This document shows, piece by piece, positions 8,932 through 42,478 of a stretch of DNA of 64,000 nucleotides. This stretch comes from Bacteriovoracia bacterium (lineage in GTDB: Bacteria; Bdellovibrionota; UBA1018; JBFWNL01). The stretch lies in contig JBFWNL010000008.1 of the NCBI GenBank assembly GCA_050251055.1, positions 1 through 64,000 of the forward strand, written 5' to 3'. A program made the translations under genes and the position numbers. The stretch's first letter is position 1, and each line of letters begins with the position of its first letter. The notes under the pieces are model-generated. The model saw only the letters and a program-made list of their open reading frames with translations, was not told the origin of the DNA and did no database searches.

Positions 8932-9510
8932 TCAGTGAACGGTCATCGCTTCCAGACTGCCGAGCACGAACATGCAAGCCGTCACGCGCTTTTGCGTGGC
9001 GGCCTGCAGACGGGCTTCCAGCGCTTCCGTCTCCTCTTCCGTCGGATAGCGCGAAATCGCGGTGAGAAACAAATGGCGGGCGTCCACCCGCGCGGGGTCG
9101 GCATCGGGAAACAGTATCCGCGGATTTCCCGGTCCAGTCGCGATCTCCAGGCAGAAATCGCGGATCAATGCGCTGAGCAGCTTGGTGTGGGCGATCGTGA
9201 AGCCGCGGTCTTCGTTCACCTCGGCGGCGTAGTTGGAGCCTCCGTATAGGAACTGGGTCGGCCGACCGGCCGCGATCCGGTTGGCCACTCCGTCGGAGCC
9301 GGATCGGCCCCCCAGGGAGATCAGATGATTCGCGAAAGCGGAGGGATGAATGCGGGTGACGTTCGGCGCGAGCGAGAGATCATCCGTCCGCGGAGAAAGC
9401 GCAGGACCGTGCGCCGGGAAGGATCCCCGCACCTGCGCGCCTTCGTTTTTTTTCAATCCTGAACACCCGCTAATGCAGAAGAACAGGACCACGAGCCACC
9501 AGCGTTTCAT
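8932..9510 (-). CDS. hypothetical lipoprotein
   Basis: ISGC lipobox; LFLTAISRYPTEEE motif resembles DUF1553/DUF1595-type helices; ATGA overlap with the upstream gene. Confidence 0.7.
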   Translation of the reverse strand: MKRWWLVVLFFCISGCSGLKKNEGAQVRGSFPAHGPALSPRTDDLSLAPNVTRIHPSAFANHLISLGGRSGSDGVANRIAAGRPTQFLYGGSNYAAEVNEDRGFTIAHTKLLSALIRDFCLEIATGPGNPRILFPDADPARVDARHLFLTAISRYPTEEETEALEARLQAATQKRVTACMFVLGSLEAMTVH

Positions 9511-11024: not shown

Positions 11025-11094
11025 ACCAGTTTATATTGTTGATCAAAACAAACAACTATTGTACGGCGACCGACACTCCCCTGAGAGAAATGGC

Positions 11095-11111
11095 GTATTC
11101 AGTTTGAATAC
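11095..11111. promoter_or_regulatory. palindromic operator-like box A (GTATTC-N5-GAATAC)
   Basis: GTATTCAGTTTGAATAC, intergenic, about 70 bp upstream of the 11024 start. Confidence 0.7.
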
Positions 11112-11133
11112 AGGCCCATCGTTTATTCGAATT

Positions 11134-11904
11134 TCACAGAGTAATCGCGTCACTAAACTCGGGCGGACGTGCTCCCCCGCTCGATCCTGGCGGGGGCGGC
11201 GGACCGGCCATCGAGGGGCAAGGCGGTGGATCGTCGGGCACCGTACCGGATTCAAAGCTAGGGAGACCCCGACAAGCGGGCTGGCCGTTAACAATTCCCA
11301 GGAGATAACATCCCGCTGGGCATCCGTTCGGGAGCAGGTCTTGGGCCACGGCGGTCAGGGCTTGGCAAAGGGCTCCCCCTTGCGCGTCGAATCCCACGAG
11401 AACTTTTCCGGCCGGACAAGCCGCTGCGAGAGCGGGATCGATCAAGCATTGCGCGACGGTTTGGGTGCCCGTGTTTCGGGCCGGAATCGTCCAGGCGGGT
11501 TCGCGAATCCCACCCGCGGTTCTCACGCGAAGCTTTAACCGCAATACGCTGAATTCACCGCTCGACCAGATCTCCTCCAAGTTCACCGCGGTGATGTTGA
11601 GTCCGTTTCTTACCGCACCGGCGGTCAGGTTGAAGTCCGAGCCCAGCGGCAAACTCAAGGGAGCGGAGCCCGATCCGCCTCCGGAAGCATAGCTTTGATT
11701 CGCCACGAGCCCGTTGCAAAGCTGGGGATCGCTAACCGCATGGGACACGAGGCTCTTGAATTGGATAAACTCCAATTGATCCCGGTTGATTTTGGTTTGC
11801 CGGAAATAAGCGGAGTAACCGCCGATGGCGGCCAGAAGTACGATCGCGAGCAACCCAAGTCCGCTTAGGTTTTCTATCAATGTGAAGCCTCGGTTATTTC
11901 CCAT
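11134..11904 (-). CDS. type IV pilin-like protein (prepilin leader)
   Basis: NNRG|FTLIE class III signal peptide; CPAG-containing Cys-rich C-terminal repeats. Confidence 0.85.
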   Translation of the reverse strand: MGNNRGFTLIENLSGLGLLAIVLLAAIGGYSAYFRQTKINRDQLEFIQFKSLVSHAVSDPQLCNGLVANQSYASGGGSGSAPLSLPLGSDFNLTAGAVRNGLNITAVNLEEIWSSGEFSVLRLKLRVRTAGGIREPAWTIPARNTGTQTVAQCLIDPALAAACPAGKVLVGFDAQGGALCQALTAVAQDLLPNGCPAGCYLLGIVNGQPACRGLPSFESGTVPDDPPPCPSMAGPPPPPGSSGGARPPEFSDAITL

Positions 11905-13660
11905 AGGGATTCACCTTCCAAACGTCGTTTCCCCGCACCGGGTCTTGGTCCCCCCCGAAGATGTAGGCGTTGTAACCCACGGTACCGAACCCAAACGCGC
12001 TCCGCGGTACCGGGGGAATATTAGGATGGGCCAAATCGGGGCCGGGGTCTTGGTCCCGTCGCTTGAGCTGATACCCCGGCGAAGGCTTATCGGGGGAAAG
12101 CTCGTACACCCAGAGATCGCCTCGACGCACGACCGGGTCGGTGACGGGCGCCGGCTGCGGGAGCGCACCTTCGTGCTGATAGCTCGCCCCCCCGAAGATG
12201 AACAACTTGGTGCCGATCGAGACCATGCGCAAACTCGTGCGGGGGGCGGGCACGGTGACGCCAGGTGTGCCGCTGCCGTCGTGGATCCGCGTGAAGGAAT
12301 ATTTACCCGGGCCATCGGCGGTTTCGAACGACCACAGGTCGTTGAGATAAGCCCCATTTTTTCCGCCAAAAATATAAAGCCGGCTCCCGTTTGCGGCGAG
12401 ACCGTGAAAGCTGCGGCCGGCGGGAAAATCGACGCCGGGTAACCCACCCGCGCTTCCATTATCCTGATCCTTTATGCGGGCAAACGCACCGGTCGCGACG
12501 TCGTAACTCCAAACGTCGTTTCCGTACGTGGTGGCTCCCCCCTCCCGGATCGAACCTCCGAAAATATACAACCGGCTCCCGATTGCCTGCAGAACCGTGT
12601 CGGACCGAAGGCCCGGACCGAAACCGGAACCATGGGCGTAGAGACGGGTCCACTTCACCGTCAACGTATCAAACTTCCAAAGATCGCCGAACCACGCCTG
12701 CGGAGAAGGACGGTAGCCGCCGTAGACGTATAGGTCAGTACCAATGGCGGCGACCCCGGCGGCGGACCTGCCCTCGGGAAAGTGAACTCCCGGGGTTCCG
12801 CCGCCGGAGCCGCCGTTCTCTCCGATCAGCTGTTGATAGGCATGGGTAACCACGTCGAATGACCAGACGTCGTTGCGACGAACCTGCGCGCTATCGGCGC
12901 CGCCGAATAAAATAAGCCGGTTGCCGATGCTAGGCAGGTAAGCCGCTTGCCGGGCGCGTGGAAACGCGATGTCGACCGGTCCGGTCGCGGTGGTTTCATA
13001 AATATTTTCGTACAGCGGACCAACGTTGAGCGGCCGGCAGTTCTCGGGCGAAGCCGGGGCGGCGACGAGATAGTGTCCGGCGGGACAGCTGCCCACGGAG
13101 CCAATCAGCGACTCATCGACGGGCGCACAGGTCCACTGGCCGTGGACGGTGCCACTCAAGGCAAAGCCCCCCGGGCAGTCCAGGTTCGGAACCGAGCTCG
13201 GCTCGGCTCCGATGCAGCGGGAAATTTTCTGGGTATCGGGGGAAATCTCCAAAAAAGCATTCACACCCAGACCGTGCGTGAAGGGAATCTCGGGTTCGAT
13301 CTTCACCTCGAACCGGTGGTTTCCCACCGCTCCCCGGTTGTGGACCTTCATCCGGGTCAGGTCGGGGCCGAACCAGCTTTCGGGAATCGAATAAGACTGG
13401 ACGGGTTGATGGACGTCGAAGCGCTGATCCCGGAGGATTCGCGTACAAGTGCCCGCGTTTCCGAAGCCCGCGAGCAACCGTTGCATCCCCTGCTGACTGG
13501 CCATCTTTTTTTCCACGGTCACGCGCTGGCGCTGGGATAGCGTCAGAAAATCTCCCAGGACGTAGATACTCGTGACGCCAACCAGGGCGGCTACCATCAT
13601 TTCCAAAGTCGAAAATCCACTTCGATCCCTACTCAGATCGGCGCCGGAAAGTCTTCGCAT
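11894..13660 (-). CDS. pilin-like protein with C-terminal Kelch beta-propeller
   Basis: RSG|FSTLE leader; CPGG/CPAG repeats; about six Kelch repeats (YIFGG...NDVW); start revised from 13804. Confidence 0.85.
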   Translation of the reverse strand: MRRLSGADLSRDRSGFSTLEMMVAALVGVTSIYVLGDFLTLSQRQRVTVEKKMASQQGMQRLLAGFGNAGTCTRILRDQRFDVHQPVQSYSIPESWFGPDLTRMKVHNRGAVGNHRFEVKIEPEIPFTHGLGVNAFLEISPDTQKISRCIGAEPSSVPNLDCPGGFALSGTVHGQWTCAPVDESLIGSVGSCPAGHYLVAAPASPENCRPLNVGPLYENIYETTATGPVDIAFPRARQAAYLPSIGNRLILFGGADSAQVRRNDVWSFDVVTHAYQQLIGENGGSGGGTPGVHFPEGRSAAGVAAIGTDLYVYGGYRPSPQAWFGDLWKFDTLTVKWTRLYAHGSGFGPGLRSDTVLQAIGSRLYIFGGSIREGGATTYGNDVWSYDVATGAFARIKDQDNGSAGGLPGVDFPAGRSFHGLAANGSRLYIFGGKNGAYLNDLWSFETADGPGKYSFTRIHDGSGTPGVTVPAPRTSLRMVSIGTKLFIFGGASYQHEGALPQPAPVTDPVVRRGDLWVYELSPDKPSPGYQLKRRDQDPGPDLAHPNIPPVPRSAFGFGTVGYNAYIFGGDQDPVRGNDVWKVNPYGK

Positions 13661-14301
13661 ACCGGTTCTCCCTCTGACGTAAAGCCACGAACGAACTGAC
13701 GAGCCGTGCATACTCGGGTGAGGCCCGCCAGTTGGCTGGTTTCGATCGGCCGGCAAATCCCCTGTCCGGCCTGAATTCCCGCCAATATTTGGCCGGCGGG
13801 GCACTGAAAGTTAGTAAGATTCCCATTCGAGGCCGCCCGACACGAAAGCAGCTCGGTCCCCGTCGGCAACGTGTTGATGGTGGCGGTCAGCTTCACCTCG
13901 GACTTCGCCGAGGAGACTCCCTGTCCCTGCAGGGCTAGGATCAACGTGCCGAGCGCGGTGGCGTTTCCCGCGCCGGGAACCACGGAATCGATCCGGAAAG
14001 TGGCGGCTACCGGGGCTGGAATGAGCGCGACGTTGGGTTGAATCGCCTGCGGTACGCCGACATCCGTCGCGTCCCAGTGCACATTTTCGAGAAGTTTTTT
14101 ACAGAATTCCGGGGTAGCCAGCAGGGCGCCCGCTTGATCCGTGGAATCGCGAAGCAGGTCCCGCAAGAAAATCGCCTGGCTCAGATGCGCCGAGTTGAGC
14201 AAGCCCGCCAACGAGCTTTCGAAGAGGATGATGGTCAACGCCATGGTCGCCAGCAAAGCGACGACCGAAAACCCTTGTTTGGAGCTTAAACTTACGTGCA
14301 T
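13633..14301 (-). CDS. pilin-like protein
   Basis: KQG|FSVVA leader + hydrophobic helix; CPAGQILAG repeat; start 14301 or 14334. Confidence 0.75.
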   Translation of the reverse strand: MHVSLSSKQGFSVVALLATMALTIILFESSLAGLLNSAHLSQAIFLRDLLRDSTDQAGALLATPEFCKKLLENVHWDATDVGVPQAIQPNVALIPAPVAATFRIDSVVPGAGNATALGTLILALQGQGVSSAKSEVKLTATINTLPTGTELLSCRAASNGNLTNFQCPAGQILAGIQAGQGICRPIETSQLAGLTRVCTARQFVRGFTSEGEPVCEDFPAPI

Positions 14302-14355
14302 CGAAATGGACCCCACTTGACGGTAGGATCGCATGCGTAGGCGTCGAAAAATCAG

Positions 14356-14411
14356 GGGTCAAATGGGACACCCCCGGTAAAACGGCGGGTTTTCGTAACC
14401 GGATTGAATAC
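14356..14411. promoter_or_regulatory. composite box B-N23-box A element upstream of pilin triplet 1
   Basis: GGGTC-AAATGG-GACAC (14356-14371), 23 bp, GTAACC-GGATT-GAATAC (14395-14411). Confidence 0.65.
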
Positions 14412-14414
14412 GGC

Positions 14415-15122
14415 TTAACGTCCTGGCCGCAGGATCGCCCTGAGATCGATGCCGTTGGAAGCGAAGAAGAGGTTCAGGAATTGGAACAGATCATCGATGG
14501 TAATCTGCTCGTCGTAGTTGAAGTCGGCGCTCGTCTCCTGCGCAAACCAGTGGTTGAGAAACACGAAGAGCGTGTCCACGGTGATGCGTCCCGTGCGGTT
14601 GACATCCCCGATGAAGACATCGAAGGGGATCTCAACTAATCCTTCGACGGGTCGCCCGCGTTCGTCACGGAGGCTGTCCAAAAATAGCGCGTACTTGCCG
14701 GCTTCCGTCAAGGGAGGGTCAAAAGTCAGGGTAGCGTTCATACCGGAGGGGTCGACATCCACCTCCGTGCGTACGCCACTAAGATCAATCTCACCGTTCG
14801 CGCCGTTTCCCACGACGGAAATCTCCGCCTGATCGGCATCCCCCTGGCGGATGGGGCGACTGAAGTACACGCGCACGGCCTCCACGCCCCGGGGCCGAAT
14901 TTCCTCGAAAATCTGGTCCGCCGGCGTCGTACGATCGGCGATCACGCGCGCATCGAGGTTGCCGTTGGATCGAGTTTTAAGCGACTCCGCCAGAATGACT
15001 TCCGAATCGCCCGGCAGCCGCGGATCGGAACCCAGCCGATAGGCCTCGTTCTGCAACGACATCCCACAGGCCGAAAATAAAATGAAAAAAGAAAATGCCC
15101 CCAATGCGCGAACGTACACCAT
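14415..15122 (-). CDS. lipoprotein with Ig-like domain and C-terminal dockerin/EF-hand-like pair
   Basis: LFSAC lipobox; GDVNRTGRITVD...ADFNYDEQITIDDLFQFLNLF; start revised from 15236. Confidence 0.7.
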   Translation of the reverse strand: MVYVRALGAFSFFILFSACGMSLQNEAYRLGSDPRLPGDSEVILAESLKTRSNGNLDARVIADRTTPADQIFEEIRPRGVEAVRVYFSRPIRQGDADQAEISVVGNGANGEIDLSGVRTEVDVDPSGMNATLTFDPPLTEAGKYALFLDSLRDERGRPVEGLVEIPFDVFIGDVNRTGRITVDTLFVFLNHWFAQETSADFNYDEQITIDDLFQFLNLFFASNGIDLRAILRPGR

Positions 15123-15338
15123 GCCCCGATACCCCCAAACGGGAGCGGACGAATTCCAACGTGAATAGGAATAAGAAAAAACCCCGAATACGCCCCCGAA
15201 TAGAACCAGTTTATTGAAGCGGTGCGTTAAAGTCAAAACATTGAGTTAAGTTAATGTAATTACTGATTAAATATTTTAGACAAGACCCGGCTCGGCGCTT
15301 CCCAAGCGCGAGATCTGCCGTTATGCAAAGAGATTACG

Positions 15339-17006
15339 ATGGTGGCTTGGTTGACCAAGCGGTGGGCGGATTTATCCATCGCCAAGAAACTCTATTTTGC
15401 GGTCGGAATCATGGCGGCTTTGATCGCCGCGGAGCTGATCACGCTGCGCTTTTCCATGCATACACTTACGGCGGTGCGCGCGTTCGTGGGGGGCGAAGGC
15501 CTTTGGTCCAAGGCCCAGAAAGACGCGCTCTACAGTCTGCAACGATACGTCAGCACACGTGACGAGGCGGACTATCAGGAGTTCCATTCCCAGCTACGTA
15601 TTCCCGAAGGCGATCACATCGCTCGACTCGCGCTCGAAAAACCAACTCCGGATCTCGCCGAAGCACGGCGCGGATTTTTGCAGGGGCAGGTGCATGGCGA
15701 TGACATCACTCCGATGATCGACCTGCTCCGGCGTTTTTATTGGGTTCACTACATCGACCATGCGGTGAAGCTCTGGGGACAGGGTGACGACCTTCTAACC
15801 GAGCTGCGCGCTTCCGCCGTGGCTTACCACGCCACGGTCTCCGGCGCGTCTCCCGATCCCGCGGAGACCCGCCGGCTACTGGACCAAATCCAATCCCTTA
15901 ACCGTCGGCTTACCCAGGTCGAGACCGATTTCTCCAACACGCTCGCCGCCGGCTCGCGCTGGCTCGAGCGCATCCTGATGACGCTCCTGTTTTTCGCCGT
16001 ATTGATTGTGGAGAGCATCGGAATCACGATTACCTACCTCACAAGCCGCAGTCTGGCCCGTGGACTGGCGGAGCTCAACGACGCCGCCCAGCGGATTGGC
16101 CGGGGCGACTTCGGGTTCCGCGTGGCCACGCGCTCCCGAGATGAATTAGGGCGGATGGGGCGGGCGATCAACGAAATGGGCGCGCAGCTGCAGGCTTCCT
16201 ACACGGAGCTAGAAATGCGCGTGGAGGAGCGGACCGCGGAGTTGAAAGGGATGGCGGAAGAAAACGCCCGTCTCTACGCCGAAGCAAAGTCAGCGCTACA
16301 GAGCCGCGATGAGTTCTTATCCATTGCTTCGCACGAACTAAAGACCCCGCTCACCGCGCTTTCGCTACAGCTGCAAATGATGAAGAATAACTTGAACGCG
16401 CTACCCACCGAAGGCACCAACGCCGCGAGGGCGTTCGCCGAAGATCCTAAGCTACAGAAACACCTGACCGGAGCATTGAGCCAAGTACGAAACCTAAGCG
16501 ATCTGATCGAAGAGCTAATGGACCTTACACGACTCCGGCTGGGTAAGTTCAATTTACGGCCGGAACTTTGTGATGTCGCGAAGATCGCCCGGGAAGTCGT
16601 GGAGCACTTTCGCGAAGCGGCCGCCAAGAAAGGCAGCACGCTCGCCCTGCAAGCTCCCGCGCCCGTGCTGGGGAATTACGACCCCACCCGCATCCTGCAG
16701 ATTTTGAACAATCTCGTTTCAAACGCCATTAAGTACGGCCGGGGAAATCCGATTTGCCTGCGCGTGGAACGCGCCGCGGACGGCACCGCCCGGCTATCGG
16801 TATCGGATCACGGCGTGGGAATCACGCCGGAAGAGCAAGCACGAATTTTCGAACGTTTCGAACGGGGGCGATCCGGAGAGGGCGTGAGCGGCTTGGGATT
16901 GGGCCTGTACATCACTCGCCAGATCGTCGAGGCCCACGGCGGAACGATTGAAGTACAAAGCCGACCGGGCGACGGCTCCACTTTTACGGTGTCCCTGTCG
17001 GCTTAG
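15339..17006 (+). CDS. HAMP-domain sensor histidine kinase
   Basis: Two TM helices, HAMP, H-box ASHELKTPL, N-box NLVSNAIKY, DHGVGI, GLGLGL. Confidence 0.95.
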   Translation: MVAWLTKRWADLSIAKKLYFAVGIMAALIAAELITLRFSMHTLTAVRAFVGGEGLWSKAQKDALYSLQRYVSTRDEADYQEFHSQLRIPEGDHIARLALEKPTPDLAEARRGFLQGQVHGDDITPMIDLLRRFYWVHYIDHAVKLWGQGDDLLTELRASAVAYHATVSGASPDPAETRRLLDQIQSLNRRLTQVETDFSNTLAAGSRWLERILMTLLFFAVLIVESIGITITYLTSRSLARGLAELNDAAQRIGRGDFGFRVATRSRDELGRMGRAINEMGAQLQASYTELEMRVEERTAELKGMAEENARLYAEAKSALQSRDEFLSIASHELKTPLTALSLQLQMMKNNLNALPTEGTNAARAFAEDPKLQKHLTGALSQVRNLSDLIEELMDLTRLRLGKFNLRPELCDVAKIAREVVEHFREAAAKKGSTLALQAPAPVLGNYDPTRILQILNNLVSNAIKYGRGNPICLRVERAADGTARLSVSDHGVGITPEEQARIFERFERGRSGEGVSGLGLGLYITRQIVEAHGGTIEVQSRPGDGSTFTVSLSA

Positions 17007-17031
17007 AGCTTCTGCCGATGCGGAACTTTCT

Positions 17032-17048
17032 GTATTCTCGCCGAATAC
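17032..17048. promoter_or_regulatory. palindromic operator-like box A
   Basis: GTATTCTCGCCGAATAC, intergenic, about 80 bp upstream of the small ORF at 17129. Confidence 0.65.
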
Positions 17049-17128
17049 TCATTTCACAACCCGCGTCGGGCGTGGGACGGAAATAAATTACGCGTCACAA
17101 CATTTCATCATAGAATAGAGATTCCCAC

Positions 17129-17284
17129 ATGAGTTTTACGATCGACGAAAACAACCGTCCGAACCAGGTAGGTTTTGGAGAAATGGAAGAAGCCAAGTCG
17201 GGCAGCGTGTACATGGAGGTTTGGACGAAGTCCGACGCCGCCAACACATGGAACACCCATTCGGGACTTGGAACGAAACAGTGA
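17129..17284 (+). CDS. small hypothetical peptide (51 aa)
   Basis: Read by eye: MSFTIDENNRPNQVGFGEMEEAKSGSVYMEVWTKSDAANTWNTHSGLGTKQ; ends 13 bp before the next gene; below the ORF-track cutoff. Confidence 0.4.
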   Translation: MSFTIDENNRPNQVGFGEMEEAKSGSVYMEVWTKSDAANTWNTHSGLGTKQ

Positions 17285-17297
17285 GAGGGAATAATAC

Positions 17298-17543
17298 ATG
17301 ATAAAGTGGATACATCGGCTGGGTGTGAAAATCGTAATGACTGCAGTGCTAACGACTTCGGCTTTTGCCTCGCCAACCGTGCACCCCTTGGATTGGGATT
17401 GCCACTATAGCCAAACGAAGCCGCAAGGCACACTAGGCATCTCCTACTGCGTCGCTAAATGCGGATACTGGCAGAATGGGGTGTTTCACGAAGTGTACGA
17501 GTCGATTTCAATCGATTCGTTTTGTGGTGACCTTCTGATTTAA
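17298..17543 (+). CDS. small secreted Cys-containing protein
   Basis: GAGGGA RBS, signal peptide ending AFA, four Cys. Confidence 0.7.
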   Translation: MIKWIHRLGVKIVMTAVLTTSAFASPTVHPLDWDCHYSQTKPQGTLGISYCVAKCGYWQNGVFHEVYESISIDSFCGDLLI

Positions 17544-17574
17544 CTGTGAGCTGGCACCTCGCCTGCGCGGCATC

Positions 17575-17943
17575 TCACCAAGCGCGCCAGCCCATTCCGC
17601 CGTGTGGCGCCGGGGCTACATACGGATGCGTCCCACCGCCGAAATAATAAGGGGAGTAGAATCCACCCGCCGTGGCCATCGAGGGATAATAAGTGAGCTG
17701 CCCAAGCATCGGCGGCATCGAGTAAGGCAGGAACGGGGTGCCATAAAACGGGCTGAAAGCCGCGCCGTAGCCTCGCGACGTCATGAACATCTGGCAGCGC
17801 GGAGTATTCATGGATAGGGTCCCGCAGCCGGAACCGCCCAAGCCGGCCGCGAAGCCGGGTTCCATCGATACGCCGCCCGAACCCACGATCGCCACCAAAA
17901 TTCCCAAGATAAAACTCTTCACTTTAGGTGCTTTCACTTTCAC
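17575..17943 (-). CDS. secreted Gly/Tyr/Pro-rich small protein
   Basis: AAGGAGA RBS before the GTG at 17943; hydrophobic leader; low-complexity G/Y/P/M body. Confidence 0.55.
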   Translation of the reverse strand: MKVKAPKVKSFILGILVAIVGSGGVSMEPGFAAGLGGSGCGTLSMNTPRCQMFMTSRGYGAAFSPFYGTPFLPYSMPPMLGQLTYYPSMATAGGFYSPYYFGGGTHPYVAPAPHGGMGWRAW

Positions 17944-18035
17944 TCTCCTTGCTCGCTCGCGCTCTCGATTGAGGAACATCGCAAGGGGTGTGCCGGAAGG
18001 AACTACGACCACGTCTCACACAGGTACCGGAAAGA

Positions 18036-18145
18036 CCGCGTATTCATCCGGAATACACGTCGAAGCCAGAAAAAATACCGTCCCTATTTTTTTCGCCTGC
18101 CCAAGACTTCAACAGCGCGTGCTTCCGCGTATTCATCCGGAATAC
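18036..18145. repeat. 21-bp direct repeat pair, each carrying box A
   Basis: CCGCGTATTCATCCGGAATAC at 18036-18056 and 18125-18145. Confidence 0.9.
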
Positions 18146-18152
18146 GAATCAG

Positions 18153-19991: not shown

Positions 19992-20075
19992 TCGGGCTGA
20001 CCTTACAACGATTTTAGACAGGCGTCGAAAATATATTTAGCCCCAAAGGCGCGGATCCAGGCATATGCTAGGAGC

Positions 20076-20249
20076 ATGGAAACCGATGTCGATTGCCCTT
20101 TTTGCGGGGAGTCCTTCTCCGTCGTGGTGGACACCTCCGAAGATCACCAAAGTTACATCGAGGACTGCTATGTCTGCTGCCGCCCCATTCAATTCACCGT
20201 GATCTGCGAGGGGGGTGAGCTCGTTTCCATCGAGGCCGCGCGCGAGTGA
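20076..20249 (+). CDS. CPXCG-motif cysteine-rich protein
   Basis: Read by eye: METDVDCPFCGESF...YIEDCYVCCRPI; AGGAG RBS; 57 aa, absent from the ORF track. Confidence 0.88.
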   Translation: METDVDCPFCGESFSVVVDTSEDHQSYIEDCYVCCRPIQFTVICEGGELVSIEAARE

Positions 20250-20274
20250 AGCTACCGCGACCCACGAGACGAGT

Positions 20275-21150
20275 CTATTCACTGGTCTTTTTCGTGACGG
20301 GGAAAAACTGGAAATTGATTTGATACACCCGTTCGGCCTTCGCGTCCTGCGAACAAAAAGCCAGGAGGTCCTTGCGAAACTGCTGGATCAGGACTTTGGC
20401 TTTCGCCGCCGTTTCCTCGGAGATCGAGCAAGTGATCGACGAAACGTCGCGTAGCTCGCGCGGAATGACGTCGAACGACTCGGCCGCCAGGCGCATGGTG
20501 CTGCGATGGAACTCGGCCACCTGTTCGGACTTCACCTCGTCGCCGGTGGTGATGTTTTCGTCGATCTGCACGAGTTTTCCCTGATCATTCCGCTGGAGGA
20601 GGCCCATTTCGAGCAGGCGCTCAATCCCGCGAATGGCCTCGCTGGGCAATATCCGCGGGATCATGTGCTGAGCGATCCAGATCGGGTCCTCGCGGAATCC
20701 CGGATGCGTGACCATCTCGCGCAGGGGGATATAATACCAGGCCGTGTAATAGTTCAGCTGCTGCTCGGAGAGGGCCCGCACGCGGCGCTTGAGGCGGATC
20801 TTCCGCACCTTCTCCCGAATCTGGTCCCTGACCCCGTCGTTCTCCGTCTGCGACATCAAAACGAGATCGGAAAAAAAATCGGCTTGGATGCGGGTCATGC
20901 GCAGCGCCCGCAAAAACTGCTGTAAGCTCGCCTCGGTGAGATTGCGCTTCCCCTCGATCACCAGCTTCAGGAAGTTGGGCGACTTCAGGCCCGCGCGACG
21001 GGCAAAATTGCGGAAGGAGAAACCCGCCTCTACTTCCTTGCGATGAACGTAGAAATCGGCCAGGAATGCCCGGTAGTCGTCGTATTCAAATACGTTGGGA
21101 GCCGTTTTAGCGTTGGACAATACCCCATCCTTTATGTCGGCCGGACTCAC
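20275..21150 (-). CDS. TIGR02147 (DUF4423) family putative DNA-binding regulator
   Basis: FEYDDYRAFL...FSFRNFARRAGLKSPNFLKLVIEGKRNL (HTH-like), YYTAWYYIPLRE, RDVSSIT, VYQINFQFFP. Confidence 0.9.
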   Translation of the reverse strand: MSPADIKDGVLSNAKTAPNVFEYDDYRAFLADFYVHRKEVEAGFSFRNFARRAGLKSPNFLKLVIEGKRNLTEASLQQFLRALRMTRIQADFFSDLVLMSQTENDGVRDQIREKVRKIRLKRRVRALSEQQLNYYTAWYYIPLREMVTHPGFREDPIWIAQHMIPRILPSEAIRGIERLLEMGLLQRNDQGKLVQIDENITTGDEVKSEQVAEFHRSTMRLAAESFDVIPRELRDVSSITCSISEETAAKAKVLIQQFRKDLLAFCSQDAKAERVYQINFQFFPVTKKTSE

Positions 21151-21258
21151 TCACCCTCCGGTTTATACCAGATTCCAGGGGCATGGGGGCTGGGCTTAGG
21201 AAGGTGAGTGAGTCGACCCGTAAAAACAGCCTAACACCCCAGTATTTGCCCCGGGGAT

Positions 21259-21314
21259 GTGTCCGTCCAGACACATCCGCCAAATCGCATCCTATTCGTA
21301 TTCAACTCGAATAC
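21259..21314. promoter_or_regulatory. composite box B-N23-box A element in the divergent TIGR02147/lipoprotein promoter region
   Basis: GTGTC-CGTCCA-GACAC (21259-21274; extends to GGATGTGTC/GACACATCC), 23 bp, GTATTC-AACTC-GAATAC (21298-21314). Confidence 0.75.
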
Positions 21315-21397
21315 GTGTTCTCCCCAAACCCCTTGAGTCCACCTAGATAAAAACCGACTAATAACATATAATATTAAGAGAGCGAGGGGGCCAATTC

Positions 21398-21988
21398 ATG
21401 CGTATCTCTTCATTTTCTAAAAGAAAGCTGATCTGCGCCAGTCTTTTATTGGCTTTGGCCGCGGCGGGCTTTTCGTGCAGCCCGCGCATCAACTCGGACA
21501 GCCAGCGCATCGGCACCGAAACCGGAAACCCCATCTTGCTCTCTCCTGAACAGCGGGCGAGCCAAATCGGCCAGATTCTAATTCAGGCCTGCCAGCTGCT
21601 GCAGTACGCGTTTGAAAACGAAACCGACGGCGGGGCGCTTTACGCGAGCTGCATCAACGGCAACCGCGACCTCGTAGGATATGCCCCTCGGTTAGGTCTC
21701 ACGGGATTTCAGGAACTCACGCTCGTGGAACTCATCGACAGAGAACTGCGGGGAGAGATTTTCCCCATTAAGGACAATCCCGCCCTCTGCCGCGAGGACA
21801 TCGCTAACATTCCTTGGAACGCGCCCGAATTGAGCTCCCTTTGCGATCCGGCGACCCAGGACTGTCCGGGCGCCCAAAAAGTACTCAGCATCAACGTCCG
21901 CCACTGCTCGCGCTCCATGGGCGGCGGAGATAAGCCCCAACCGCCCAACCCCCACGACGAGTCTGCCGCCGTCATCGGCATCGATTAA
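21398..21988 (+). CDS. hypothetical Cys-rich lipoprotein
   Basis: GFSC lipobox followed by a GTETGNP motif; divergent from TIGR02147. Confidence 0.75.
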   Translation: MRISSFSKRKLICASLLLALAAAGFSCSPRINSDSQRIGTETGNPILLSPEQRASQIGQILIQACQLLQYAFENETDGGALYASCINGNRDLVGYAPRLGLTGFQELTLVELIDRELRGEIFPIKDNPALCREDIANIPWNAPELSSLCDPATQDCPGAQKVLSINVRHCSRSMGGGDKPQPPNPHDESAAVIGID

Positions 21989-23103
21989 TGAAGCAAACTG
22001 GGCCTTGCGTCACGCTCTGTCTTGCGCTCGCGCTGTCCGCCGCAGGGGGAGGTTGCACGGCCAAGTTTTCCCGGGCGGTCAAACGGCACGGCTATCTTTA
22101 CTACGGCTCGAGTTTTCCCCAGGGGATCCTAGGCCACTTCCGCGTGGATTTAGATGCAGGCACGCTGAGCGAGGACACCAACGACATTCCCCTCCTCTAC
22201 CAAGGCGCGGGCGTGCAGATCTCCCCCGGTATTTCCCCGCCTTTTTTTCCCACCAACGGTCTGGTTTGGCTGCCCAGCTCGCTTACCCAAAGTATCCTGG
22301 TCGCGCGCATCAACGCGGCCACGGGGGGACTCATCTACGCGGACCAAGGCTTCGCGGATGCGGCCGTCACTGCCCTGGCCGTGGATCCCAGCCATCGCTT
22401 CATGGTGGGTTTCAACACCGTCAGCACGCCGGTGAAGGCATTCAGCTTGGACGAAGCGGGTACTCCCGTCTTAATCAATTCTCAGTCGCTGGGCGGGAGT
22501 TTTCCCGTACGAGCCGCCTTTAGCTCCACGGGCAACTTCCTCTTTGTGGCGACCAATTCCTCGGGTATCGTCACGCTTCCGTTCAACACAAGCACGGGAA
22601 GCCTTTCCGCATTTACGTCCACCAGCCCTCTAGGAGGAGGAACGGCGATAAAAATCGAGGCACATCCCAGAGAACAGATTCTCATCGGCGCCTTCAACAC
22701 CTCGCTGACCATCCAGTCCATGGCGATCAACGGCTCCACCGGCGCTCTCACGGGTGTGCAGTCGGAAAGCATCTCCGCGAATATTTCGGACTTCACCCTT
22801 CACCCCACCCTCGACAGTTTTTATGTCTTAAAGCAATCCTCTCCGGGAGAAATTCGCGCTTACTCCATAAACACCGCTACCGGCGCCTTTACGTATGCGT
22901 CGACGCAGGTGCTGAGTCAGGTGGATGTTTACCGATCGATGGAAATTAGCCGTGACGGGCGATTCCTGTATGCCGCCACGGATTCCGCCGTAGAAGTCTT
23001 TTCCGTTTCCGAAGATGGACTGGAACTTTCCGCCGTACAGACGCTTTCCGCTTCGGGGCGGAAAGATTTTCTCACCTTCGCGGCGGTATTGCAGGAACTA
23101 TAA
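21988..23103 (+). CDS. lactonase-like beta-propeller lipoprotein
   Basis: AVDPSHRF, FSSTGNFLFVA, ISRDGRFLYAA blades; INxxTGAL repeats; TAATG coupling. Confidence 0.8.
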   Translation: MKQTGPCVTLCLALALSAAGGGCTAKFSRAVKRHGYLYYGSSFPQGILGHFRVDLDAGTLSEDTNDIPLLYQGAGVQISPGISPPFFPTNGLVWLPSSLTQSILVARINAATGGLIYADQGFADAAVTALAVDPSHRFMVGFNTVSTPVKAFSLDEAGTPVLINSQSLGGSFPVRAAFSSTGNFLFVATNSSGIVTLPFNTSTGSLSAFTSTSPLGGGTAIKIEAHPREQILIGAFNTSLTIQSMAINGSTGALTGVQSESISANISDFTLHPTLDSFYVLKQSSPGEIRAYSINTATGAFTYASTQVLSQVDVYRSMEISRDGRFLYAATDSAVEVFSVSEDGLELSAVQTLSASGRKDFLTFAAVLQEL

Positions 23104-23120
23104 GTCGATTCTACGGCATT

Positions 23121-23381
23121 TCAGATAAATCCAAATACGTTATAAAGACAGATTAGGAGCTGGTGCCTTAGATATTCCTCATACTCATCGGGATCCCAGC
23201 CGCTCAAGACGTGAGCTGAACCATAGGCATAGGTTGAAAAACAACCCATCATTCTTTCATGCTGCGTCTTATCCGATGGCGGTTGGTCACCATCCCGCTG
23301 TCGCCGTTCCGCAGAAGAAGACAACGGCAAGGCGAGAAAAATGCAGGCCACCAAAAATACATTTTTAGATTTTCTAGTCAT
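23121..23381 (-). CDS. small secreted hypothetical protein
   Basis: Signal peptide ending SSSA; AT-richer than neighbours; start uncertain (23381-23417). Confidence 0.55.
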   Translation of the reverse strand: MTRKSKNVFLVACIFLALPLSSSAERRQRDGDQPPSDKTQHERMMGCFSTYAYGSAHVLSGWDPDEYEEYLRHQLLICLYNVFGFI

Positions 23382-23435
23382 AGTTTTATCCATCTTTTGT
23401 TTTTTTATCGCTCGCATCCACTACATGGATCCTCG

Positions 23436-24761
23436 TTAGCGGAGATACTCCATCTCCACGGAAAGCTGGATGGCATCCCGATGCTGGCAGTCGCTGCTGT
23501 CGTCGTCGCCCGTGATCGCTAACATCAGGTCGACGCGGTTCCGGCTTCGAATGCGACTGCCCAAAGCCTGTCCGACGGGAACCGCTTCCGGATTCTCCAG
23601 GTTTAGAGAAAATGGCCCCACCCGCTCCGTGCGTGGAATCTCGCACCGGTAAGGCAGGATACAGTTCGTTACGGGGTCCGGCGCCTTCGCCTGCGATTCT
23701 CCCCCCCGAATCGTTTCCCAGGAGTAATCCCGTAATCCGTCGGCACCTTGGGGAAAAATGGAGACCGGCATCTTCAAACTGCTCGTCATCAGAACCGCGT
23801 TGTTTAGGGTGAGGATCAGGTGATCGTCGTATTTGAATTGAGTAGCCGTGCCGTAGATCCGCTTCACCCGGCACACCGTCCCCGCGGGCAATGGGCTTTG
23901 AATGAGCTGTTCGTGGCGCGCTTGGGTATGTCCTGAGCGTCGTCCCAGATTTCCGCCTTGGTTCCAATCGCAGTGAAGACTCCCGCGGGTTTCCGGCAAG
24001 GTCATCGTGACCGTCCTGACCTCGAAGGGCCCCGTATCGCATCGAGGCGGGGCAGGCGGCACGACCGGAGGCGGTGTGGTGGGCGGCCCCGTCGGACGAG
24101 CGACGGGATTTCTAAGATCCGAATAGGAAGCGGCGCAAACGGGTCGATTATCCACCACCCCGACCATCACCTCTCCCGCGACCGGGCACGTCGCTCCCGC
24201 CACCGAGATCGGTCCACAGACCGGCACGCCTCCGACTCCCAGGGAAATGACCGACTCGCCAGCCGGGCAGAGCGCTTCCGACCTTCCCATGAAGGAGCCG
24301 CAGCTCAATACCCGATCCAGGCCCGGCCGTTCCAGTTGCACGATGAATTGAAAACTTTCTGGACGAAGCGAATTGCCCCCCACTTCTCCGGACTGGGCCC
24401 GTTCAATGCTTAAATCTAGCCGGACCTGATAGATGTCTTCGCTAAAACGGTAAACCGGGGTCAGACCCAGGGATCGGATGAGAATTCGATCTTGTACAGA
24501 CCCTTCCGAATAAACCGCGCCATCCCTACTGGCGAAAGAAATCGGAGAAGTCCCGTTCGCATTGAAGGGCTGCCCTGCGAGCGCGCTACTGCATCGCTCC
24601 TTATTGACCAGGTGATACATCATATTATTGATGAGTTCGGAGCGATCGTCCGTGGTCACCATTCCTTGCTCGGCGCGCTTGGAGAGGACCACCGCGCTGC
24701 CGATACCACCGGCCACGACCGCGGCTGCCGCGATAGCCGCCATGGTTTCAGCTAGATTCAT
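23436..24761 (-). CDS. pilin-like Cys-rich protein
   Basis: MNLAE + hydrophobic helix (Glu5), CPAG repeats, Pro-rich linker, distinct C-terminal domain. Confidence 0.75.
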   Translation of the reverse strand: MNLAETMAAIAAAAVVAGGIGSAVVLSKRAEQGMVTTDDRSELINNMMYHLVNKERCSSALAGQPFNANGTSPISFASRDGAVYSEGSVQDRILIRSLGLTPVYRFSEDIYQVRLDLSIERAQSGEVGGNSLRPESFQFIVQLERPGLDRVLSCGSFMGRSEALCPAGESVISLGVGGVPVCGPISVAGATCPVAGEVMVGVVDNRPVCAASYSDLRNPVARPTGPPTTPPPVVPPAPPRCDTGPFEVRTVTMTLPETRGSLHCDWNQGGNLGRRSGHTQARHEQLIQSPLPAGTVCRVKRIYGTATQFKYDDHLILTLNNAVLMTSSLKMPVSIFPQGADGLRDYSWETIRGGESQAKAPDPVTNCILPYRCEIPRTERVGPFSLNLENPEAVPVGQALGSRIRSRNRVDLMLAITGDDDSSDCQHRDAIQLSVEMEYLR

Positions 24762-26190
24762 AACGCTTCCCCTGGTGAGTCGGTTCGACCTTCATCCCGT
24801 TCGGCACGTAGCAGTCGTGCTGGGGATCGCTCGAAACCGAATTACAAAATGAAATCTTCACCGAAAGCTCGGTCGCCGGCTGATTCAACGCCTTCGGGAA
24901 TCCGCCGCAGGACACGTCGCCGTTGAGATGGATGAGTTGATCATCCTTTGCCAAGCGGTAAGCGAACACCCATTCCGCGCCGGGGCGCGTGCCCGCCGGA
25001 AACTCCTCGCCGGTTCGGAGGCCCAACGGACGCAGAGGCAAGCTCCCTGGCGCGTAGGCATGGGCAAAACCGAAGTAAGGGCTTCCTCGGTAGTCCGAGT
25101 AAGGCGAATCTAAGTTTCTAGGGTTAATCGTACTTTCGAAGAGCTTTTCCCAGGTGTTTCCCGGTGGCAAATATCCGCCATGGGGAGAATAGGCGTTGGT
25201 GAGGTTAATCCGAAGATGCGACGCCCCTCCCAGTACCCATTCCAGCGCCGACGCATCGTTTGACTCCTGTCGGAAGGATTGGGATACAATCCGGGTTACC
25301 GCGATCACGCTGCGGGAAGGCACCGCGAAGACATCGGTAAACGACTCCTGCGGTGAGCTGCCCAGTTCTTTCTCCGTCCCATTGCCGGAAACGATCGGCA
25401 CTCCGTTTTTCCATCGACAGGAGATCTCCCGACGGTAAGTGAAGGCGGACGCGGCGGCCACCGGAAGGGGGGCGCAGACCGCCGCGCCATTCTCGAAGCC
25501 AATGAGTCCATTTCCCTGACCACAGGAAAACGGAGGAATGTTAGTCCCGATCCGGCCATCGCATACGGGGCGCCCTTGCGAGTCGATTCCCGTAAATACT
25601 CCCGTTTCGCACGCGATCGGGGCTTGGATTTGACTCGCCGGGGTCCGGGTATCCAGGCATTGCCCGACGGTAAACTGAGTACCGTCCAGGATCCCTTGTA
25701 GTTGCACCGGCGTATCCGACAAAGTTTTCCTTTGCCCTTGGGATTTCACCCAGAGCTGCAGTCTCCCCCGCAGAGCCACCGGCACACTGTCATCGGCCGA
25801 AAGGGGCAGGGTACTCGCGGCGGTCGCGACCGTGGCTTCCACGGACATCCCGTCAAACTGAACATCCCCCCACAAGGGCGTACCGACGCGCCAGCGCACG
25901 CCGTTCGGGAAGAGAACCGTCTCTTGCCGAGCGCGGTAGATCGTGGCACCGACCGAAGACGACGACGCGCGCAGACTCAGATTTTTCACGAACTGCGAAC
26001 AGGTAGCGCTGTTTTCCAAGAGGTACCCGTAGCGGACCTCTCCTTCCATGGCCTGCGAGCGCGTGCGGGCGGCGGCCGCCTGCTTCGCGCCCCATCCGCT
26101 CCACTGCAAAGTCGGCAATAGCACCGCCAGCACCATCAGGCCGCCCAATAGGACGGAAACCAACGACTCCCCACGGTTGCTCAAATTCAT
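24748..26190 (-). CDS. pilin-like Cys-rich protein
   Basis: GGAGG RBS; MNLSNRG|ESLVSVLL leader; C..G..GIDSQGRPVC repeats; start revised from 26304. Confidence 0.75.
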   Translation of the reverse strand: MNLSNRGESLVSVLLGGLMVLAVLLPTLQWSGWGAKQAAAARTRSQAMEGEVRYGYLLENSATCSQFVKNLSLRASSSSVGATIYRARQETVLFPNGVRWRVGTPLWGDVQFDGMSVEATVATAASTLPLSADDSVPVALRGRLQLWVKSQGQRKTLSDTPVQLQGILDGTQFTVGQCLDTRTPASQIQAPIACETGVFTGIDSQGRPVCDGRIGTNIPPFSCGQGNGLIGFENGAAVCAPLPVAAASAFTYRREISCRWKNGVPIVSGNGTEKELGSSPQESFTDVFAVPSRSVIAVTRIVSQSFRQESNDASALEWVLGGASHLRINLTNAYSPHGGYLPPGNTWEKLFESTINPRNLDSPYSDYRGSPYFGFAHAYAPGSLPLRPLGLRTGEEFPAGTRPGAEWVFAYRLAKDDQLIHLNGDVSCGGFPKALNQPATELSVKISFCNSVSSDPQHDCYVPNGMKVEPTHQGKRYESS

Positions 26191-27542
26191 GGGCCTCCTC
26201 CGCAGGTGGTATGGAGCATGCGTTTTTCCATCATGGTGAGCTGATACTTCCCGGTTTCCCGGCCCAAGGACGACGCCGGTGCGTGCTCGATGGCATTCAC
26301 CCATTCTGCCCTGGTCTCAAAGGCATCAACTATCCGAATGGCTCCCGATGAAAGCCTTTCGTAGGCGCGCAGGATTCTGCGATTTTCCGAGGCCGATTCA
26401 TTCGGCCGCCAATCATTCAAAAGATCGAGGAGCCGGTTGTCTGATTTTTGATCCAAGACCGTCCAACTTCCGTCTGGCAAAGAGAATCCACCGGGAAAGG
26501 TGGTGATTTGCCGTCTTTGTTCCAACACTTTATTCCCCCAAGGGTACCCAATGCGCATGCAAGCCCGTCTTCCCTGAGAATCGGTCAGATTTCGGTTACT
26601 GGTCGCCGTCCAGATCGAACCCACCCAAAAATCACAGTGAGAACTGTAATCGCTTTGATTCAGCTGGTAGAGGCTACCCCCGGGTATCGCCTCCCAGATC
26701 TTATCTCGGCCGCCGCCGACTTGGATTTCCCTCTCCACTAGGACCGCCAGATGAACGACTTCCACCTCTCCACAAGCCGAGGGAGAGTATCCCTCCGGAT
26801 ATTCTCCCTCGACCGGACTAGTCGTCGCGGGAGCCACGCAACGAAAAGTGGAGTTAGCGCCGGGCGTGGAAACGGCGAACTGCCCGGCGGGGCAGCGCAA
26901 AGGCACGGTGGAGTTCGGAATGGTAGGAGGCCGACACAAGATCCTCCCCTCATCATTATATCCAACGCTGACCAATCCCGCTTCGCAGGTTTGCCCGAAG
27001 GGGGTGACCTGCCCGTCGCTCAGGGAGCATTTGGCGATACGGGTGCCGTCGGGCGTCGCCTCGAGGCGAATCGGAAACTCATAGTTCTGCTGCTTCACGC
27101 CCATGAGGTTTGCCATCCAGGAGCGGTCCGCCGGAACGCGTATCTTCCAATCCGGGGATCCTCCCGCCGGGGCGACTAAGAGTGGACGACCCACGCGGGC
27201 CTGAAGTTCGGGAATCAGCTGGGGTTGGGACGTGTTGAGGACCACGATGCGGCCCGCCCAGGGGATCGAAAAGCTCAAAGGAGCGTTAGGTGCCGTGCCC
27301 GCTGGCAGTCGCTGTCCGCCAATCAGGGAGGCGCAGCTCTGCGGATCGATCAGCTGAAGACGAATCGCGTCCTTCATCTGCTCGTCCGCCCAGGCCATTT
27401 TCACGCGAAATTCACGCTTCCGCATGAGCAAAAAGGTATCCGACTTCATAAAGAGCCCGGCGCTCACCACGCTAATCGCGGCCAAGGCGGCTAGCACCGT
27501 GGATCCGTGAATTTCGCCGTGTATACGGAACCCTCTGTCCAC
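26187..27542 (-). CDS. pilin-like Cys-rich protein
   Basis: IHG|STVLAALAA leader; CEAG/CPAG repeats; ATGA coupling to the next gene. Confidence 0.7.
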   Translation of the reverse strand: MDRGFRIHGEIHGSTVLAALAAISVVSAGLFMKSDTFLLMRKREFRVKMAWADEQMKDAIRLQLIDPQSCASLIGGQRLPAGTAPNAPLSFSIPWAGRIVVLNTSQPQLIPELQARVGRPLLVAPAGGSPDWKIRVPADRSWMANLMGVKQQNYEFPIRLEATPDGTRIAKCSLSDGQVTPFGQTCEAGLVSVGYNDEGRILCRPPTIPNSTVPLRCPAGQFAVSTPGANSTFRCVAPATTSPVEGEYPEGYSPSACGEVEVVHLAVLVEREIQVGGGRDKIWEAIPGGSLYQLNQSDYSSHCDFWVGSIWTATSNRNLTDSQGRRACMRIGYPWGNKVLEQRRQITTFPGGFSLPDGSWTVLDQKSDNRLLDLLNDWRPNESASENRRILRAYERLSSGAIRIVDAFETRAEWVNAIEHAPASSLGRETGKYQLTMMEKRMLHTTCGGGP

Positions 27543-27594
27543 CGTAAATCCCCCTCTCTATCCAGGGTAGTGGAGAAGGGAGGAGCCCAAGGAT

Positions 27595-27650
27595 GTGTCA
27601 ACGCCGACACGCCGGGGTCCCCGGGCGAAAAGCGTATCCGGCGGGAATAC
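27595..27650. promoter_or_regulatory. composite box B-N23-box A element upstream of pilin triplet 2
   Basis: GTGTC-AACGCC-GACAC (27595-27610), 23 bp, GTATCC-GGCGG-GAATAC (27634-27650). Confidence 0.72.
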
Positions 27651-27719
27651 ACCGGGCCGATCCCCGATCGGCAGCAAAAACGGTGTCCATTCCATTACCT
27701 ATCTGCTAGTCCTGCCTCC

Positions 27720-29552: not shown

Positions 29553-29554
29553 CG

Positions 29555-30319: not shown

Positions 30320-30322
30320 AAG

Positions 30323-42339: not shown

Positions 42340-42478
42340 ACCTTAGTTTTGTTTTCAAAAAAAATACTCCGCTCATGGGGGGACGCCCATCCACGGGCTC
42401 GACCCTTCTTTCCCTTCCTGGACCGGGCCCCCCCATGAGCGGAGTATTTTTTTTGAAAACAAAACTAAGATTGGTGCT
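42333..42478. repeat. tRNA-adjacent fold-back element A (50-bp arms, 46-nt loop)
   Basis: 42333-42382 is the reverse complement of 42429-42478 with one mismatch; the loop core is shared with element B. Confidence 0.92.

Follow-up and report, generated by a model that had tools for sequence, protein, structure and literature searches.

The first 64,000 nucleotides of contig JBFWNL010000008.1 from a Bacteriovoracia bacterium (C8:1-64000, hereafter the window) carry a recurring palindrome, (C)GTATTC-N5-GAATAC, in the neighbourhood of a gene for a TIGR02147/DUF4423 protein (20275-21150, minus strand). From sequence comparison and structure models we propose, with a probability of roughly three in four, that this palindrome is the operator of the 20275-21150 protein, which is predicted to control its own gene and a local regulon. 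TIGR02147/DUF4423 is a large, expanded family without assigned function, and the proposal offers it a first testable role.

A palindrome confined to 17 kb of the genome

A scan of the window located perfect copies of GTATTC-N5-GAATAC at 11095, 17032, 18040, 18129 and 21298, the five positions listed in an initial annotation made from the sequence by eye. None of 100 dinucleotide-preserving shuffles of the window contained the perfect pattern. Allowing up to two mismatches added the two variants that had also been listed, at 14395 (GTAACC..GAATAC, two mismatches) and 27634 (GTATCC..GAATAC, one mismatch), together with matches in A/T runs at 38755, 42351 and 42444, which we regard as chance. The resulting total of 10 matches compares with a shuffle mean of 1.26. 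The seven sites span 17 kb, and the five perfect copies lie inside 10 kb.

The initial annotation had seen no copy outside 11-28 kb, and this holds far beyond the window: its five perfect copies are the only ones in the whole assembly of 3,765,037 bases (21 contigs, 58% G+C). The palindrome is strongly over-represented, and solely inside the 17-kb stretch. Genome-wide, the 10 one-mismatch matches are at about chance level. Eight of them fall in coding DNA on our gene map, a crude one built from hexamer statistics; the eight include 27634, which is miscalled because an over-long open reading frame (ORF) call swallows it. Two-mismatch matches number 71 in coding and 14 in intergenic DNA, and the single hexamer GTATTC is not enriched between genes (184 of 1661 occurrences are intergenic, compared with an intergenic fraction of 10.4%). 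A motif as frequent in coding as in intergenic DNA would have spoken against a regulatory role; the perfect copies are all intergenic.

All seven sites proved to be intergenic on the gene map. With starts re-read by eye, the nearest plausible downstream start codon was 60-102 bp away, close to the 70-97 bp first reported for six of them. The copies at 18040 and 18129 have 21 identical bases, spacer included, so that one of them is a local duplicate, as had been suggested for 18129. Spacer variation, also claimed initially, does not extend to this pair; it is real among the other sites, which differ in spacer and have unrelated flanks. The sequence common to the five other copies consists of the half-sites and the preceding C only, and the mismatches at 14395 and 27634 are uncompensated.

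A second DNA run, from a nearly identical strain, lists no differences over 10900-27800. Two of its contigs (records 14 and 15) end and begin at the palindrome at 21298 (window 21295-21309), probably an assembly break at the inverted repeat. Elsewhere in the window, GTTTTCAAAAAAAATAC and a near mirror of it, GTATTTTTTTTGAAAAC, stand 93 bp apart at 42351-42460, in intergenic DNA upstream of an OmpR-type response regulator gene (42657-43349).

In other genomes the dyad is associated with helix 3 of the adjacent protein

The initial annotation had assigned the palindrome to the local TIGR02147 protein and suggested scanning relatives for the motif near genes of this family. We searched 400 genomes of the phylum with the window's protein and took the 29 best loci together with some 1.5 kb on either side; upstream of L089 the DNA extends for 48 bp only. 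Dyads were scored from GTATTC, GAATAC or GTATAC half-sites. An N5 dyad was present upstream of the gene in 8 of the 11 loci whose protein carries the helix SPNFLKLV, which is helix 3 of the N-terminal domain in the window's protein, and in 0 of the 18 loci with other helices (Fisher one-sided p = 3.8e-5). This association is the strongest evidence for the assignment, which the dimer predicted below also supports. Five of the eight dyads are perfect GTATTC-N5-GAATAC. At a ninth SPNFLKLV locus (L082) the upstream gene overlaps the start of the regulator and is itself preceded, at a distance of about 100 bp, by a perfect palindrome. In the same 102 kb no match was obtained with a control pattern that was reversed without being complemented. 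When the spacing was scanned from 0 to 12, only N5 (10 matches) and N4 (4 matches) were populated, spacing 1 yielding a single match, and all four N4 matches came from loci with the helix variants SPNFFKLV, SPNFIKLV or SPNFLQLV.

The dyads are also fixed in position. Their gap to the start codon was 52-55 bp in seven of the eight N5 loci and 69 bp in the remaining one (L076), with a second dyad at 124 bp in L077; in two N4 loci it was 51-55 bp. Three metagenome loci with the SPNFLKLV helix and 44% identity (L032, L035 and L036) all carry a dyad 53-59 bp before the start of the gene or operon, and in 2000 shuffles at least one match appeared 9, 1 and 20 times, respectively. Spacers and flanks differ between genomes and the half-sites alone are conserved; the proximal one is always GAATAC, usually followed by A. 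Such features, namely half-sites conserved around a free spacer, in intergenic DNA and at a constant distance from the gene of the regulator itself in genomes that are unrelated, are those expected of an autoregulatory operator.

In the other genomes (L032, L036 and L076-L085) a small lipoprotein with an N-terminal Cys and a GT(D/G)TGNP motif is encoded directly downstream of the regulator. The window's lipoprotein gene at 21398 encodes the same TGNP motif, but stands opposite the regulator gene rather than behind it. This genome is the only one of its family, and the best homologue of its protein in the genome and metagenome collections is 44% identical. Among 40 order-level relatives, five carry one or two perfect palindromes each, none next to a TIGR02147 gene.

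A related palindrome in which the fifth base is changed, GTATCT-N5-GGATAC, was seen in metagenome locus L039, about 270 bp before the gene of a homologue that has SPNSLKNV as its helix 3.

The protein is a predicted dimer with free helix-turn-helix domains

The protein encoded at 20275-21150 scored 237.2 bits against TIGR02147 (cut-off 50), covering model positions 2-272 of 272, and 137.2 bits against DUF4423 (PF14394; cut-off 30). By these curated cut-offs it is a member of the family to which it had been attributed, and it is not filed under any characterised regulator family. This genome encodes 33 TIGR02147 paralogues above the cut-off, and its relatives up to 32.

A search of the PDB with a profile of 21 paralogues matched residues 132-239 to MarR-type proteins (6jbx, E = 9e-4; ZitR, 0.008; SlyA, 0.014). 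Residues 28-87 gave weaker matches to XRE helix-turn-helix proteins (E = 0.07-1; C.BclI 0.07, ClgR 0.22, HigA 0.28). An AlphaFold2 (AF2) model built from the alignment with the 21 paralogues reached a predicted local distance difference test score (pLDDT) of 85, and the single-sequence model, at 36, was unusable. Structure comparison (VIA-align) related residues 22-107 to HigA, DdrO, P22 c2 and 3pxp (Z 6.5-8.3, root-mean-square deviation (rmsd) 2.6-3.2 over 66-80 residues) and residues 108-285 to ArsR, SmtB and MarR (Z 7-8.3), with the proviso that a Z under 8 can reflect a common arrangement. Foldseek paired the model with small helix-turn-helix proteins at probabilities of 0.90-0.99 and template modelling (TM) scores to target of 0.53-0.60; run against the PDB with the whole two-domain model, it returned no match at E <= 0.001. 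The model places a long linker helix at 105-134 and a helix at 169-181, followed by strands at 185-187 and 193-195. The helix that matches the MarR recognition helix is acidic, alanine-rich and kept across the paralogues, so that this C-terminal helix is unlikely to set specificity. The protein is thus likely, though not proven, to consist of an XRE-type helix-turn-helix domain and a winged-helix-like domain.

Homodimer prediction gave a score of 0.68, the best control reaching 0.00. Among 30 proteins whose solved structures are pairs of one chain, 20 attained this mark, compared with 1 of 23 solved as single chains. At least 95% of contacts agreed between runs, and the partner pLDDT was at least 78. 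The predicted symmetric interface involves residues 138-290 only, which would leave both N-terminal helix-turn-helix domains free.

In the mechanism that we envisage, the protein would dimerise through its C-terminal DUF4423 (winged-helix-like) domain and present the two N-terminal XRE-type domains, each of which would read one GTATTC half-site via helix 3. Across the wider phylum the regulator's own gene or operon, apparently leaderless, would be autoregulated through a single dyad, the centre of which is some 61 bp before the likely transcription start. In this genome the dyad appears to have been copied to six further promoters within 17 kb, by which a single local regulator could co-control the divergent promoter that it shares with the lipoprotein gene, both pseudopilin-like operons, the gene of a di-haem lipoprotein, the two loci for small proteins and an ABC (ATP-binding cassette) transporter. 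Binding, its stoichiometry and the sign of regulation are what we infer from these comparisons.

Paralogues and competing explanations

Alignment separated the paralogues into two groups, 12 that score above 230 bits on TIGR02147 and about 20 that score lower. Six members of the first group have a helix 3 of the form SPN[FY][FL][KR], and five of these six have an exact GTATTC within 300 bp upstream, compared with none of the other six; chance would give about 0.12 matches per 300 bp. The exact SPNFLKLV helix occurs in the window's paralogue only, and the inverted N5 arrangement of GTATTC is likewise found nowhere else in this genome. Direct GTATTC repeats do occur elsewhere. Three with N4 spacing lie within 4 kb of paralogue C2:398417, beside pilin-like genes (C2:394487, C2:397444 and C2:398258), and another is at C1:214367. 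A direct N5 repeat (C5:55767) is just upstream of paralogue C5:54826, and a GTATTC..GTATAC form (C5:148501) just upstream of paralogue C5:147626. Direct repeats of either spacing are almost always intergenic, and several are at or near other TIGR02147 paralogues and pilin-like or Tad-like genes. The remaining direct-N5 sites, also intergenic, are at C2:9457, C3:155049 and C6:112962. The first of these lies between convergent genes, a position not accounted for by a role in promoters. Nothing convincing emerged when the intergenic DNA near other paralogues of subfamily 1 was searched for recurring 5-mer dyads.

Among the 33 paralogues of the genome, it is the unique helix of the local copy and its proximity that link it to the palindrome. 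The sites might instead be bound by other GTATTC-type paralogues (C2:398417, C5:147626, C5:54826 and C2:466252), alone or with the local one, the local gene then being one target among others. These four share an SPN[FY][FL]K recognition helix, and direct N4 or N5 GTATTC repeats stand at or near three of them. Those repeats are, however, the paralogues' own and differently arranged; the inverted N5 form is absent from the rest of the genome, and the exact SPNFLKLV helix, which is linked to N5 dyads elsewhere, belongs to the window's paralogue only. We consider binding by the other paralogues unlikely.

Somewhat less probable still is a regulator unrelated to TIGR02147, such as a partner of the histidine kinase encoded inside the cluster (15339-17006) or the factor that recognises a second palindrome, GTGTC-N6-GACAC, which is coupled to three of the sites; adjacency to the TIGR02147 gene would then reflect co-regulation. 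One genome with seven perfect copies away from any TIGR02147 gene (G114, below) would fit such a factor. An unrelated factor would not, however, predict that the presence of the dyad and its spacing (N5 or N4) follow helix 3 of the adjacent protein across 29 loci. Nor is there a response regulator gene in 11-28 kb, the nearest of OmpR type being that at 42657-43349.

The initial annotation favoured a protein site over an RNA hairpin, and the balance of the evidence agrees. Four copies lie 4-26 bp past a stop codon, and for the perfect copies the folding energies are -4.8 to -11.5 kcal/mol (z-scores -1.9 to -4.0; A/T-rich stems of 6-7 bp), as a terminator, attenuator or processing site in RNA or DNA might. 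Yet none of the seven sites is among 18 terminator-like calls and none has a T-tract, two copies are situated between divergent genes, and the variants at 14395 and 27634, with their uncompensated mismatches, do not form a hairpin. Orthologous loci have direct repeats in the same place, which are unable to pair, and Rfam 15 gave no match at E <= 1 on either strand of 10500-28500. A hairpin function is accordingly very improbable. That the copies are without function, left behind by local duplications or by a small element of repeated or mobile type, as the identity of 18040 and 18129 down to the spacer might suggest, is scarcely credible, given that the other five share so little beyond their half-sites, that no perfect copies lie outside the stretch and that other families have the half-sites too, again at a constant distance from the start codon.

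Several observations weigh against the local TIGR02147 protein as the reader of the palindrome, or against parts of that proposal. The distal half-site is inverted in five of the other loci, direct in three and part of a GTATTC..GTATAC pair in one, which a rigid symmetric dimer would not tolerate; either orientation fits flexibly tethered helix-turn-helix domains with a C-terminal dimer better. Pfam helix-turn-helix models gave no match at E <= 0.01 in the protein, and the structural Z-scores are middling. Two SPNFLKLV loci (L085 and L091) have no dyad in the available DNA, and that of L082 falls outside the stored locus. Conversely, L071 and L072 have a perfect palindrome near TIGR02147 paralogues with quite different helices, and G114 has its seven perfect copies dispersed over five contigs, none near a TIGR02147 gene. 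In one family of the phylum the palindrome occurs in 25 of 34 genomes and the control pattern in none, and SPNYLKLV-type regulator loci from seven of those genomes lack a dyad; in G114 and such lineages the palindrome may mark dispersed targets. Within the present genome, other paralogues share the GTATTC half-site as direct repeats, which makes cross-talk possible. The six further sites are placed in the putative regulon by their sequence identity and position.

Promoter geometry and the sign of regulation

In the orthologous promoters an A/T-rich, -10-like hexamer, often CCGATAAT or CCGATAGA, starts some 40 nt past the dyad and stops 6-9 nt short of the ATG. The position of this hexamer implies leaderless or near-leaderless transcripts and would put the dyad centre near -61. 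Site 21298 resembles these promoters, CCGACTAAT beginning 39 nt downstream of it towards the lipoprotein gene. A promoter scan found a sigma-70-like TAGATA-17-TATAAT at 21344-21372, the only one adjoining a site; measured from it, the dyad centre would move upstream by one helical turn, to about -73. Promoter-like matches in the region were not in excess (7, with a shuffle mean of 6.2).

Upstream activators typically have their sites centred around -61. Because the dyad lies upstream, clear of the -35/-10 region, we lean weakly towards activation, which seems somewhat more likely than repression, dual action taking the smaller remainder. The idea that GAATAC itself serves as a -35 element was rejected for the orthologous promoters, in which the -10-like hexamer, about 40 nt after the dyad, is too far away.

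Sites and candidate target genes

The genes of the locus were named by Pfam, NCBIfam and a reading of N-termini, and their operon boundaries are putative. Site 11095 (11095-11111, perfect, GTATTCAGTTTGAATAC) lies 70 bp upstream of the ATG at 11024 of a lipoprotein gene (9507-11024, minus strand) and 23 bp past the stop of 11134-11904. The lipoprotein has two CxxCH motifs and a weak PSD2 match. The gene labels of the initial annotation are mostly right. In the haem-c triplet that it had named here, CxxCH is found in this first gene only; its two pilin triplets are borne out by their prepilin-like N-termini. The first of these, pseudopilin-like operon 1 (11134-14334, minus strand), comprises 13633-14334, a Kelch-repeat protein gene (11894-13804) and an N_methyl protein gene (11134-11904). 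Upstream of it is site 14395 (14395-14411), the variant GTAACCGGATTGAATAC with two mismatches. A dockerin-type domain protein (14415-15236, minus strand) and the histidine kinase (15339-17006, plus strand) are encoded next.

Site 17032 (17032-17048, perfect, GTATTCTCGCCGAATAC) is 80 bp upstream of the ATG at 17129, the first of two small plus-strand ORFs (17129-17284 and 17298-17543) of 51 and 72-81 amino acids. A terminator-like hairpin at 17010-17025 directly follows the histidine-kinase gene, just before this palindrome. Sites 18040 (18040-18056, perfect, GTATTCATCCGGAATAC) and 18129 (18129-18145, perfect, with the same spacer) are both upstream of a small secreted-protein gene (17575-17943, minus strand), the former by about 96-102 bp; the latter is 8 bp past the stop of an ABC-F ATPase gene (18153-19991, minus strand).

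Site 21298 (21298-21314, perfect, GTATTCAACTCGAATAC) lies between the divergent genes of the proposed regulator, a protein of 291 amino acids, and of the lipoprotein with the TGNP motif, 147 bp from the GTG at 21150 and 83 bp from the ATG at 21398. The lipoprotein (21398-21988, plus strand) has the N-terminal motif C...GTETGNP. A lactonase-type beta-propeller lipoprotein gene (21988-23103, plus strand) probably belongs to the same operon, because its start abuts the stop of the lipoprotein gene.

Site 27634 (27634-27650, GTATCCGGCGGGAATAC, one mismatch) separates the divergent pseudopilin-like operon 2 and ABC-transporter operon. The former (23436-27542, minus strand) contains 26187-27542, 24748-26304 and 23436-24761, whose products have hydrophobic prepilin-like N-termini and are without Pfam matches. 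The latter (27720-30847, plus strand) encodes a fused permease, an ATPase and an AAA_assoc_C protein, and its ATG at 27720 is 69 bp from the site. A Pho box was considered for site 27634 and dropped, the transporter not being Pst (matches to Pst models were weak).

A second palindrome coupled to three sites

Our analysis refines the earlier account in one respect: three of the sites are composite. The palindrome G[T/G]GTC-N6-GACAC occurs exactly 23 bp from sites 14395, 21298 and 27634, on the low-coordinate side, and points to the minus-strand genes. At 14356-14371 (GGGTCAAATGGGACAC) it is 54 bp upstream of the ATG at 14301; at 21259-21274 (GTGTCCGTCCAGACAC) it is on the TIGR02147-gene side; and at 27595-27610 (GTGTCAACGCCGACAC) it is 52 bp upstream of the GTG at 27542. 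In every composite the second palindrome is the one nearer to the minus-strand gene, and 14301 and 27542, at 52-54 bp, are the likely starts of two of these genes. The fixed centre-to-centre distance of 39.5 bp, as at 21298, lends independent support to the variant sites 14395 and 27634.

Genome-wide, spacing 6 accounts for nine exact copies, and each of the spacings 2-5 and 7-9 for 0-2. Allowing one mismatch gave 40 intergenic and 25 coding matches on the crude map (41 intergenic if the miscalled 27595 is counted) in a genome that is 10% intergenic. Most of the sites precede genes for secreted proteins, lipoproteins or pilin-like proteins, or one of four TIGR02147 paralogues. Paralogue C14:5675 was considered as a protein that might read GTGTC-N6-GACAC; in the 400 genomes it has no distinct orthologue.

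Tentatively, and with well below even odds, the 33 paralogues might be local regulators arranged in a layered network, every one with its own cassette of pseudopilin-like, lipoprotein and secreted-protein genes. Specificity would come from a few residues of helix 3 and from the geometry of the tether (inverted or direct, N4 or N5). GTGTC-N6-GACAC would be the operator of a master paralogue or global factor above them, and the bacterium, a member of a predatory lineage, would in this way choose among alternative surface and pilus sets.

A metagenome locus (L038:7700-7900) has three tandem GTGTC-N6-GACA[TC] upstream of a TIGR02147 homologue with helix 3 TSTFLHRV.

Relation to known regulators

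The controller (C) proteins of restriction-modification systems (such as C.Esp1396I, C.AhdI and C.BclI), which are XRE-family helix-turn-helix dimers, are among the best sequence and fold matches to the N-terminal domain described here. They regulate their own promoters from palindromic boxes immediately upstream, and the N-terminal domain with its autoregulatory dyad would act in the manner of these and other small XRE regulators. C proteins have about 80 amino acids and dimerise via the helix-turn-helix, whereas the present protein has 291, with a long linker helix and a C-terminal winged-helix-like domain through which it is predicted to dimerise. The half-site also differs, the locus lacks a restriction-modification context, and the proposed regulon has seven sites.

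The DUF4423 region matches MarR and ArsR-SmtB proteins (FabT 6jbx, ZitR, SlyA and CzrA) both by profile (E = 9e-4 to 0.03) and by structure (Z 7-8.3), and as in those families it is predicted to form the dimer interface. In contrast to them, an XRE domain is fused at the N terminus, and the counterpart of the recognition helix is acidic and alanine-rich. AraC, which carries its DNA-binding domains on flexible tethers, tolerates direct or inverted half-sites at the same spacing. The dyads of the orthologous loci suggest a similar tolerance; the fold is unrelated, and the likeness would be one of mechanism only. Dimers of the CRP/FNR type bring about class I activation when centred near -61.5. 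The predicted dyad centre in the orthologous promoters, about 61 bp upstream of starts deduced from -10-like hexamers, is similar, but the family and the half-site differ.

In the paper library that was searched, no binding site was found described, TIGR02147 is not mentioned, and DUF4423 appears solely in a proteome table, where the DUF4423 protein Bd3700 is among those rising in the growth phase of Bdellovibrio. Our assignment of regulator, operator and target class is new and specific; in kind it describes an ordinary transcription-factor regulon. The concrete properties that it offers are a fold-level identity, an operator (GTATTC dyads with N5 or N4), a conserved promoter geometry, a conserved TGNP lipoprotein partner, and target operons for pseudopilin-like and surface proteins. 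Whether a dyad is present, and with which spacing, appears to depend on single residues of helix 3, a natural series in which insulation among paralogous regulators can be studied.

The lower-scoring paralogues have a setting of their own. Most of these roughly 20 genes (for example L024-L030) lie behind extreme A/T-rich islands, with 100-bp windows of 5-20% G+C. The genome has 36 such islands, 14 of them within 600 bp of a TIGR02147 gene, and several contain GTCAAAT about 130 bp upstream of that gene.

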